Of a stretch of 4,222 bases of DNA, positions 1-4,222 are shown piece after piece. The notes under the pieces were generated by a model. It had not been told where the DNA came from. It saw only the letters and a list, made by a program, of their open reading frames with translations, and made no database searches. The stretch lies in sequence record PP430144.1; one strand, written 5' to 3'. This DNA is from Enterobacteria phage FrMerlot. Within the stretch, counting starts at the first letter, position 1, and every line of letters begins with the position of its first letter. Position numbers and translations under genes: made by a program.

Positions 1-2
1 TC

Positions 3-15
3 CCCCCTTAGGGGG
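3..15 (+). other. 5'-terminal stem-loop in the 5' UTR (CCCCC / GGGGG stem, UUA loop)
   Basis: Direct reading: c3-c7 pairs with g11-g15 around loop t8-t9-a10. A stable GC-rich terminal hairpin is characteristic of levivirus 5' ends. Confidence 0.55.
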
Positions 16-46
16 TCACCTCACACAGCAGTATTTCACTGAGTAT

Positions 47-2372: not shown

Positions 2373-4126
2373 CTTCGCATAACTCTCTTAGCGCACAATT
2401 GCGCCGAGCCGCGAACACAAGAATTGAGGTCGAAGGTAACCTCGCACTTTCCATTGCCAACGACTTACTATTGGCTTATGGTCAATCGCCATTTAGCTCT
2501 GAGGCTGAGTGTATTTCATTCAGCCCGAGATTCGACGGGACCCCGGATGACTTTAGGATAAGTTATCTTAAAGCCGAGATCATGTCGAAGTATGACGATT
2601 TCAGCCTAGGTATTAATACCGAAGCTGCTGCCTGGGAAAAGTTCCTAGCAGCAGAGGCTGAATGTGCTTTAACGAACGCTCGTCTCTATAGGCCTGACTA
2701 CAGTGAGGATTTCAATTTCTCACTGGGCGAGTCATGTATTCACATGGCCCGCAGAAAAATAGTCAAGTTAATAGGAGACGCTCCGTCCGTTGAGGGTATG
2801 TTGCGTCACTGCCGTTTCTCTGGTGGTGCCACAACAACGAATAACCGTTCGCACGGTCATCCGTCCTTCAAGTTTGCGCTTCCACAAGCGTGTACGCCTC
2901 GGGCTTTGAAGTATGTTTTAGCTCTTAGAGCTTCTACACACTTCGATATCAGAATTTCTGATATTAGCCCTTTTAATAAAGCAGTTACTGTACCTAAGAA
3001 CAGTAAGACCGATCGCTGTATTGCTATCGAACCTGGTTGGAATATGTTTTTTCAACTAGGCATCGGTGGTATCTTACGTGATCGGTTGCGGTGCTGGGGT
3101 GTCGATCTGAATGATCAGACGATAAATCAGCGTCGCGCTCACGAAGGCTCCGTTACTAATAACTTAGCAACGGTTGATCTCTCAGCGGCAAGCGATTCTA
3201 TATCTCTTGCTCTCTGTGAGCTCTTATTGCCCCCAGGCTGGTTTGAGGTTCTTATGGATCTCAGATCACCTAAAGGGCGGTTGCCTGACGGTAGTGTTGT
3301 TACCTATGAGAAAATATCCTCTATGGGTAACGGATACACATTCGAGCTTGAGTCGCTTATCTTTGCTTCTCTTGCTCGTTCCGTTTGTGAGATACTGAAC
3401 TTAGACTCGTCTGAGGTCACTGTTTACGGAGACGATATTATTTTACCGTCCTGTGCAGTACCTGCCCTTCAGGAAGTTTTTAAGTATGTTGGTTTTACGA
3501 CCAATACTAAAAAGACTTTTTTTGAGGGGCCGTTCAGAGAGTCGTGCGGTAAGCACTACTATTCTGGCGTAGATGTTACTCCCTTTTACATACGTCACCG
3601 TATAGTGACTCCTGCCGATTTAATACTGGTTTTGAATAACCTATATCGGTGGGCCACGATTGATGGCGTATGGGATCCTAGGGCCCATTCCGTGTACCTC
3701 AAGTATCGTAAGTTGTTGCCTAAACAGCTGCAACGTAATACTATACCTGATGGTTACGGTGATGGAGCCCTCGTCGGATCGGTCCTGATCAATCCTTTCG
3801 CGAAAAACCGCGGGTGGATCCGGTACGTACCGGTGATCATAGACCATACAAGGGACCGAGAGCGTGTTGAATCGGGGTCGTATCTTTACGACCTCTTTTC
3901 GCGTTGCTTTTCGGAAAGTAACGATGGGTTGCCTCTAAGGGGTCCGTCGAGTTGCGATTCTGTAGATCTATTTGCTATCGATCAACTTATCTGCAGGAGT
4001 AATCCTACAAAGATAAGCAGATCTACTGGTAAATTCGATATACAGTATATCGCGTGCAGTAGCCGTGTTCTGGCACCCTACGGGGTCTTCCAGGGCACGA
4101 AGGTTACATCTCTACACGAGGTGTAA
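2357..4126 (+). CDS. rep: RNA-dependent RNA polymerase (replicase beta subunit)
   Basis: ATG at 2357 (MSKTASSHNSL...) to TAA at 4124-4126, 589 aa. The catalytic YGDD motif is encoded at 3425-3436 (tac gga gac gat) in frame. The translation is recognisably Q-beta replicase. An in-frame ATG three codons upstream (2348) overlaps the SD and is less likely to be the start. Confidence 0.93.
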   Translation: MSKTASSHNSLSAQLRRAANTRIEVEGNLALSIANDLLLAYGQSPFSSEAECISFSPRFDGTPDDFRISYLKAEIMSKYDDFSLGINTEAAAWEKFLAAEAECALTNARLYRPDYSEDFNFSLGESCIHMARRKIVKLIGDAPSVEGMLRHCRFSGGATTTNNRSHGHPSFKFALPQACTPRALKYVLALRASTHFDIRISDISPFNKAVTVPKNSKTDRCIAIEPGWNMFFQLGIGGILRDRLRCWGVDLNDQTINQRRAHEGSVTNNLATVDLSAASDSISLALCELLLPPGWFEVLMDLRSPKGRLPDGSVVTYEKISSMGNGYTFELESLIFASLARSVCEILNLDSSEVTVYGDDIILPSCAVPALQEVFKYVGFTTNTKKTFFEGPFRESCGKHYYSGVDVTPFYIRHRIVTPADLILVLNNLYRWATIDGVWDPRAHSVYLKYRKLLPKQLQRNTIPDGYGDGALVGSVLINPFAKNRGWIRYVPVIIDHTRDRERVESGSYLYDLFSRCFSESNDGLPLRGPSSCDSVDLFAIDQLICRSNPTKISRSTGKFDIQYIACSSRVLAPYGVFQGTKVTSLHEV

Positions 4127-4133
4127 CCTGGGA

Positions 4134-4152
4134 GGGCGCCAATATGGCGCCT
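4134..4152 (+). other. 3'-UTR hairpin 1 (GGGCGCC / GGCGCCU stem, AAUAU loop)
   Basis: Direct reading: 4134-4140 pairs with 4146-4152, six G-C pairs plus a closing G-U, around a 5-nt loop. Confidence 0.55.
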
Positions 4153-4176
4153 AATTGTGAATAAATTATCACAATT
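4153..4176 (+). other. 3'-UTR hairpin 2 (AAUUGUGA / UCACAAUU stem, 8-nt A/U loop)
   Basis: Direct reading: a perfect 8-bp stem, 4153-4160 with 4169-4176, around loop AUAAAUUA (4161-4168). Confidence 0.55.
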
Positions 4177-4188
4177 ACTCTTATGAGT

Positions 4189-4216
4189 GAGAGAGGGATC
4201 TGCTTTGCCCTCTCTC
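4189..4216 (+). other. 3'-terminal hairpin (GAGAGAGGG / CCCUCUCUC stem, 10-nt loop AUCUGCUUUG)
   Basis: Direct reading: a perfect 9-bp stem, 4189-4197 with 4208-4216, leaving the last six nt (CUCCCA) single-stranded. Confidence 0.6.
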
Positions 4217-4218
4217 CT

Positions 4219-4222
4219 CCCA
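4219..4222 (+). other. 3'-terminal CCCA, the levivirus genome terminus and replicase initiation site
   Basis: The window ends ...cctccca. Levivirus plus strands end in CCCA-OH, with the final A untemplated. Confidence 0.7.

Follow-up and report, generated by a model that had tools for sequence, protein, structure and literature searches.

The loop of the 3'-terminal hairpin (U1) of Enterobacteria phage FrMerlot is complementary to a site inside the replicase gene, and this pairing is very probably the long-range replication pseudoknot already known from phage Qβ. The window, i.e. the whole stretch of 4,222 nt that was analysed (PP430144.1), is a near-complete genome of Qubevirus durum, a levivirus of the Qβ group. 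In megablast comparisons, phages FrHibiscus and FrBurgundy match it at 97% identity across 99% of its length, and Qβ isolates at 94-96% (94% for AB971354). The maturation, coat, read-through and replicase genes are annotated in relatives under full-length matches of 94-97%, for a genome of about 4.2 kb, and ORFs of the expected sizes were found in the window. The replicase start that matches the annotated relatives is the ATG at 2357; a second in-frame ATG lies three codons 5' of it (at 2348), which is why the mechanically delimited replicase ORF has 592 aa instead of 589. Relative to Qβ, the 5'-terminal GGGG is missing from the window and the first base is U instead of A (window 1-20). The read-through (A1) extension contains in-frame insertions of 3 nt (1783-1785) and 6 nt (1796-1801) relative to Qβ, which are likewise found in FrHibiscus-type isolates.

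In the letters of the window, the loop segment 4200-4207 is CUGCUUUG and the upstream site 2977-2984 is UAAAGCAG. The two strands pair in antiparallel orientation through seven Watson-Crick pairs and one G·U (C4200-G2984, U4201-A2983, G4202-C2982, C4203-G2981, U4204-A2980, U4205-A2979, U4206-A2978 and G4207·U2977), and 1216 nt separate position 2984 from position 4200. The site covers the third base of Asn207, the codons of Lys208 and Ala209 and the first base of Val210 in the replicase ORF. Both strands are the same as in laboratory Qβ (AB971354), where they occupy positions 2972-2979 and 4195-4202. A later study (PMC3561173, citing Klovins & van Duin 1999, J Mol Biol 294:875) describes a pseudoknot between the U1 loop of Qβ and a site about 1200 nt upstream as essential for replication. 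The Qβ pseudoknot shares with the FrMerlot pairing the species, loop, site, hairpin, distance and position at an interdomain junction, and the identity with Qβ 2972-2979 and 4195-4202 suggests that the published base pairs are the ones given here. The differences between FrMerlot and Qβ are strain-level substitutions outside the pairing nucleotides, for instance an A-U instead of a G·U at U1 pair 4194:4211, and FrMerlot presumably behaves like laboratory Qβ. The preliminary description, made from the letters alone, had thus given the coordinates and the pairing exactly, had correctly placed the upstream site in the replicase gene and the loop in a 3'-terminal hairpin at 4189-4216, and had recognized the resemblance to the Qβ pseudoknot, which the same species, identical strands and spacing of about 1200 nt bear out.

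RNAfold, applied to the last 103 nt, predicts a 9-bp stem (4189-4197/4208-4216) that closes a 10-nt loop (4198-4207). The 3' domain, which is very stable (fold energy of -49.3 kcal/mol, z = -7.1), contains four hairpins, U1 being the last, and the pairing of the terminal CUCCCA with 4129-4134 closes it. The U1 stem covaries across the genus (e.g., pair 4194:4211 appears as A-U, G·U and U-A). The predicted closing helix agrees with the cryo-EM model of the virion, in which the last six nucleotides of Qβ pair with Qβ 4124-4129 (PMC8880383), the equivalent of window 4129-4134. The elements discussed here are gathered in Table 1. No Rfam family corresponds to the pseudoknot; the sole hit in that database, to the Pseudomonas sRNA P24, was spurious and below threshold (18.9 bits, with the gathering score set at 100).

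Table 1 Elements of the putative pseudoknot and of its surroundings in the FrMerlot window
Feature	Position	Strand	Basis
Upstream (5') pseudoknot strand, UAAAGCAG	2977-2984	+	Sequence; invariant run; unpaired probability 0.68; synonymous constraint
5' strand of the predicted nested long-range helix (span of ~1.07 kb)	2986-2993	+	MFE of 2701-4222; covariation
3' strand of the predicted nested long-range helix	4054-4061	+	MFE of 2701-4222; covariation
5' strand of the 3'-domain closing helix, partner of the terminal CUCCCA	4129-4134	+	RNAfold; match to cryo-EM model
U1 5' arm, GAGAGAGGG	4189-4197	+	RNAfold; stem covariation
AU linker from the U1 5' arm to the pseudoknot strand	4198-4199	+	RNAfold loop boundaries
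Downstream (3') pseudoknot strand, CUGCUUUG, 8 of the 10 loop nucleotides of U1	4200-4207	+	Sequence, fold, conservation
U1 3' arm, CCCUCUCUC, 0-nt junction with the pseudoknot strand	4208-4216	+	RNAfold; stem covariation
3'-terminal CUCCCA, minus-strand initiation site, in the closing helix directly 3' of U1	4217-4222	+	Fold; covariation data; cryo-EM model

The accessibility of both strands was estimated with a partition function computed over 2701-4222. Mean unpaired probabilities are 0.93 for the loop 4198-4207 and 0.68 for the upstream site, the latter value ranking at the 95th percentile among 8-mers. The site is flanked on one side by a domain closing at approximately 2762-2982 and on the other by a predicted helix of about 1 kb (2984-2993/4054-4063). 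According to this model, the site would be accessible and single-stranded, at a junction between domains downstream of the M site. In the thermodynamic model the partner of G2984 is C4063 and not C4200, but the SP/FI group does not keep this pair; since pair 2985:4062 is broken in SP/FI, G2984 is free there for the pseudoknot. The part of the long-range helix that begins one nucleotide after the pseudoknot site is supported by covariation: between the Qβ group and the SP/FI group, U-A is replaced by C-G at 2986:4061 and A-U by U-G at 2992:4055. [quoted passage not shown] 1998. That interaction involves the same genome region and is reported to be needed for replication as well, but, as a conventional nested helix by which the 3' part of the replicase gene is closed, it differs from a loop-to-strand pseudoknot.

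The complementarity taken by itself is unremarkable. Among 1000 dinucleotide-preserving shuffles of the window, an equal 8-bp partner (at most one G·U, with any part of the loop) was found somewhere in 44%, with a mean of 0.71 per shuffle, and a partner within ±50 nt of position 2977 in 1.2%. These figures agree with the caveat of the preliminary description that so short a match is expected by chance somewhere and that its position carries the weight. Moreover, the best complement of the loop in the window is another sequence, AAGCAGAU at 4015-4022, which makes eight Watson-Crick pairs with loop nucleotides 4198-4205 and has a duplex energy of -9.6 kcal/mol, compared with -8.9 kcal/mol for the site at 2977-2984. 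With the match at chance level and a better decoy present, the pairing cannot be established from the window alone, and a comparison with relatives was therefore needed.

Fifteen complete or almost complete genomes of Qubevirus (Qβ strains, M11, MX1, SP and FI) were compared with the window. In all 16 sequences the site reads UAAAGCAG, and it is the only conserved loop complement in the region about 1200 nt upstream. Fourteen of the 16 cover the whole loop octamer, which is the same in 13 of them. The exception is Qβ strain HL4-9 (L009), with CUGCUUAG, in which a U-to-A change at the equivalent of window position 4206 produces an A·A mismatch with an unchanged site; either a sequencing error near the terminus or a 6+1 helix that the phage tolerates could explain it. 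At the equivalent of loop position 4206, the deep lineage P0015, described below, has an A as well. Among 12 non-redundant Qubevirus lineages sharing 58-96% genome identity with the window, the 11-nt run AAUAAAGCAGU (2975-2985) ties as the longest invariant run genome-wide, out of 860 runs, and contains three consecutive invariant third codon positions, compared with 15% invariant third positions in the gene.

A codon alignment of 16 replicase lineages (46-97% replicase identity) makes it possible to separate constraint on the protein from constraint on the RNA. The residues N-K-A are invariant as protein in all 16 lineages. The lysine is encoded by AAA in every one of them, which is unique among the 11 conserved lysine columns (overall AAA usage, 41%). 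The third base of the alanine codon is only A or G, the two bases able to pair with U4201, and this is the sole purine-restricted column of the 35 conserved four-fold-degenerate columns. Among the 21 triplets of consecutive conserved residues, none has a third-position entropy as low as that of N-K-A. Judging from this alignment of 16 lineages, the synonymous constraint on the N-K-A codons is the strongest in the replicase gene, and protein coding does not suffice to explain the site 2977-2984.

Because both strands are invariant in the cultured phages, the search for covariation was widened beyond them. One protein-database search recovered intermediate replicase lineages at 46-73% identity, whose contigs were retrieved. 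The site varies among these lineages (CAAAGCAG, UAAAGCAA, CAAAGCAA, CAAAGCGA and UAAAGCGA), and the Thr-codon lineages P0005, P0008, P0012, P0013, P0016 and P0017 all have an A at the position of 2984; P0002 and P0009 have AAC as the Asn codon. Most of the 21 contigs from intermediate lineages end within the U1 5' arm, where the inverted repeat presumably interrupts the assembly, and complete hairpins could be obtained from P0014 and P0015 only. In P0014 (50% identity) the terminal hairpin is preserved because its contigs, L114 and L115, are concatemer-like assemblies: its U1 stem is GGGGACAGG/CCUGUUCCC, its loop UUUGCUUUG and its site CAAAGCGA. In these JGI contigs (L114 3395-3560 and L115 1-90), the 3' end (...CCCCUCC or ...CCCCUCCC) runs directly into the 5' end (GGGGUAGGGCCCC...). 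The P0015 contig (46% identity, L121) ends in ...ACCCCA plus an added A-tail, and has the U1 stem AGAGGAGGC/GCCUCCUCU, the loop GUGUUGCUUA and the site AAGCAACA.

The pair 2984:4200, which is G-C in Qβ, M11 and SP, is A-U in both P0014 and P0015. In P0014 the pairing strands are CAAAGCGA in the site and UUGCUUUG in the loop: G2984-C4200 has become A-U by changes on both sides, U2977·G has become C-G, A2983-U has become G·U, and 8 bp are retained. In P0015 the strands are AAGCAACA and UGUUGCUU, and the helix has slid 2 nt downstream with the addition of a C-G and an A-U pair, which results in eight Watson-Crick pairs. The cognate duplex has 8 bp in all four lineage types, with energies of -8.7 to -10.4 kcal/mol. 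In a gap-free alignment of 10 distinct rows, 97.5% of the cells are standard pairs in the proposed register, compared with 25-48% after a shift of the partner by 1-3 columns; one pair changed on both sides, and two changed on one side with pairing kept. The covariation score was reached in 5 of 500 control shuffles, a level that related sequences without structure can also reach. In a neighbour-joining tree the A-U pair is found on deep branches, which are only 41% identical to each other, and G-C in the crown groups, among which P0005 and P0008 are nested; on this topology the compensatory evidence is counted as a single certain event and not as several. It is a small sample, made up of two uncultured lineages known from assemblies, one of which (P0014) is represented by concatemer-like contigs. 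The covariation analysis that the preliminary description had proposed as a check therefore finds invariance in the cultured genomes and a joint change from G-C to A-U, counted as one certain event, in P0014 and P0015. Independent drift of the two sites, which it had named as a refuting outcome, is not what the Qubevirus genomes present, since both strands are invariant in all 16 apart from the single loop base of HL4-9.

Further sampling added little. A scan of IMG/VR yielded 80 loci; besides SP, FI and Qβ-like contigs (L016-L018), all of them are at most 49% identical. These distant loci encode NK[VI][VI] instead of NKAV and none of them reaches a true 3' terminus, so their distance and truncation make them uninformative on covariation. 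A scan of metagenomes yielded a single Qβ-like contig, which is partial. In the P0002 lineage, the JGI contig L103 has at 3-1037, upstream of the maturation gene, an additional ORF of 344 aa with a high content of Q, Y and S (...YYSKQQNYRGSYDYSKQQDY...); this ORF resembles no levivirus gene, and the contig may be a chimeric assembly.

Two other explanations of the complementarity have to be weighed. The functional partner of the loop in FrMerlot could be the decoy at 4015-4022, which would form a local pseudoknot about 180 nt upstream and either replace the 1.2-kb pairing or compete with it. Its duplex is the stronger of the two in the window, and the two variants found within the Qβ cluster, AAGCAGGU and AAGUAGAU, still pair through G·U wobbles; nevertheless, both are transitions, which keep a wobble by default, and they carry little weight. 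The decoy is entirely different in M11, MX1, SP and FI despite the same loops, and the partition function buries it in a local hairpin (mean unpaired probability of 0.25, 44th percentile). As it is neither conserved nor accessible, this candidate was dropped as the loop partner; we regard it as highly improbable, and 4015-4022 is at most a strain-specific competitor.

The complementarity could also be a coincidence, the octamer being fixed by the replicase residues N-K-A-V and the U1 loop by its role as a protein-binding site, recognised either by the replicase or, in the virion, by the maturation protein A2. The frequency of equal matches in the shuffles, the invariance of NKA as protein and the conservation of a UGCUU-type U1 loop even in MS2, SP and AP205, reported in PMC3561173, are all compatible with it. 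Yet coding leaves unexplained the all-AAA lysine column, the purine-only third base of the alanine codon and the minimal third-position entropy, and the change from a Val to a Thr codon (G to A at 2984) is matched by a loop C to U in both lineages whose loop is known. Neither would a coincidence account for the two pairs that P0015 gains when its helix slides, or for the mutational evidence that PMC3561173 reports for Qβ. A coincidence is extremely improbable in view of these observations, and the Qβ replication pseudoknot is the reading retained here.

The 10-nt loop of U1 would then pair, through 4200-4207, with the junction between the M-site-containing domain and the nested helix of about 1 kb. 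The loop helix would be continuous with the U1 3' arm, owing to the 0-nt junction, and may stack coaxially on it, and the loop bases AU (4198-4199) would bridge to the 5' arm, probably by crossing the deep groove of the loop helix, as in the general stereochemistry of H-type pseudoknots. U2985 would separate the loop helix from the nested helix, and three helices may converge at the base of the 3' domain. In Qβ, the S1 protein of the replicase holoenzyme recognises the internal M site, and long-distance interactions bring the 3' end near the active site (PMC4200798). The pseudoknot and the adjacent helix would tie the 3' terminus to the internal region where the holoenzyme docks via S1 at the M site, so that the CCCA-3' end would be presented to the polymerase active site for the initiation of minus-strand synthesis. 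Of the elements of this scenario, the complementarity, the hairpin, the predicted accessibility, the conservation, the synonymous constraint and one natural compensatory change come from the present analysis; essentiality for replication and the S1/M-site recruitment model come from the Qβ literature.

The state of the RNA in the virion has to be considered as well. The cryo-EM model of the virion has U1 in contact with the maturation protein, and its description makes no mention of a pseudoknot (PMC8880383). Since U1 is bound in this way, the pairing is not permanent and is presumably specific to one state of the RNA, and the contact also places the loop under a second constraint. Other long-range tertiary contacts that involve replicase-gene sequence have been observed in the same genome, namely the kissing loops of packaged Qβ (2844-UCGU-2847/1876-ACGA-1879 and 2811-UUUUC-2815/2749-GAAAA-2753), which were described as a conserved feature of Qβ-like phages (Chang et al. 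2022, PMC8880383). Those contacts were observed in virion RNA, and a role in shaping packaging was proposed for them; both are mismatched in the window (UCGC at 2849-2852 and UUCUC at 2816-2820, with the partners 1881-1884 and 2754-2758 unchanged), whereas the pseudoknot is intact. One tentative and rather speculative reading is that the U1 loop has two states: it would pair with the replicase-gene site for minus-strand synthesis and be caught by the maturation protein for packaging, and so act as a switch between replication and packaging. The same tentative reading would make the pairing both ancient and mobile: uncultured Qubevirus-like lineages would have preserved it through compensatory changes and shifts of register, and in Emesvirus (MS2 and GA) its partner may have been relocated to replicase codons 151-152.

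Pseudoknots of the U1 loop have been proposed in other Fiersviridae, such as the pairing of UUGCU with AGCAA 1215 nt upstream in phage M, and PMC3561173 describes the U1-loop pseudoknot as unverified in phages other than Qβ. The phage M site was reproduced here (AGCAA, L102 2168-2172, 1215 nt upstream of the loop). MS2 has CAAGCA (L097 2211-2216, 1339 nt upstream) and GA has CAAGCAA (L098 2199-2205, 1247 nt upstream), each the perfect complement of its own U1 loop and both at the same replicase codons 151-152 (Gln-Ala); MS2 also has a second CAAGCA at 1402. These three phages resemble Qubevirus in having a UGCU-containing U1 loop and a complement in the replicase gene 1.2-1.3 kb upstream, but the partner is not homologous, as it lies about 120-145 nt upstream of the VPK motif and not 16 nt as in Qubevirus. 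The matches, of 5-7 nt, are at chance level and represent candidate pairings. At the homologous site, no complement of the loop was found in MS2, GA, PP7, AP205, PRR1 or M, and for that reason phages outside Qubevirus do not test the Qubevirus pairing.

For FrMerlot, the known picture is unchanged, and the additions are modest, consisting of natural compensatory evidence from uncultured lineages. A testable prediction arises for lineages whose 3' ends are missing, P0005 and P0008 in particular, and the comparison with the virion is a reminder that the U1 loop also contacts the maturation protein. In eukaryotic plus-strand RNA viruses, e.g. tombusviruses, long-range pairing between the 3' end and internal sequences activates minus-strand synthesis. 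The likeness is one of mechanism only, in that a pairing over kilobases positions the 3' terminus relative to an internal element that recruits the replicase; the viruses, proteins and sequences are unrelated. The pseudoknot explains how a replicase docked internally reaches a 3' end that is folded away, a textbook case of the control of viral replication by RNA tertiary structure over kilobases.
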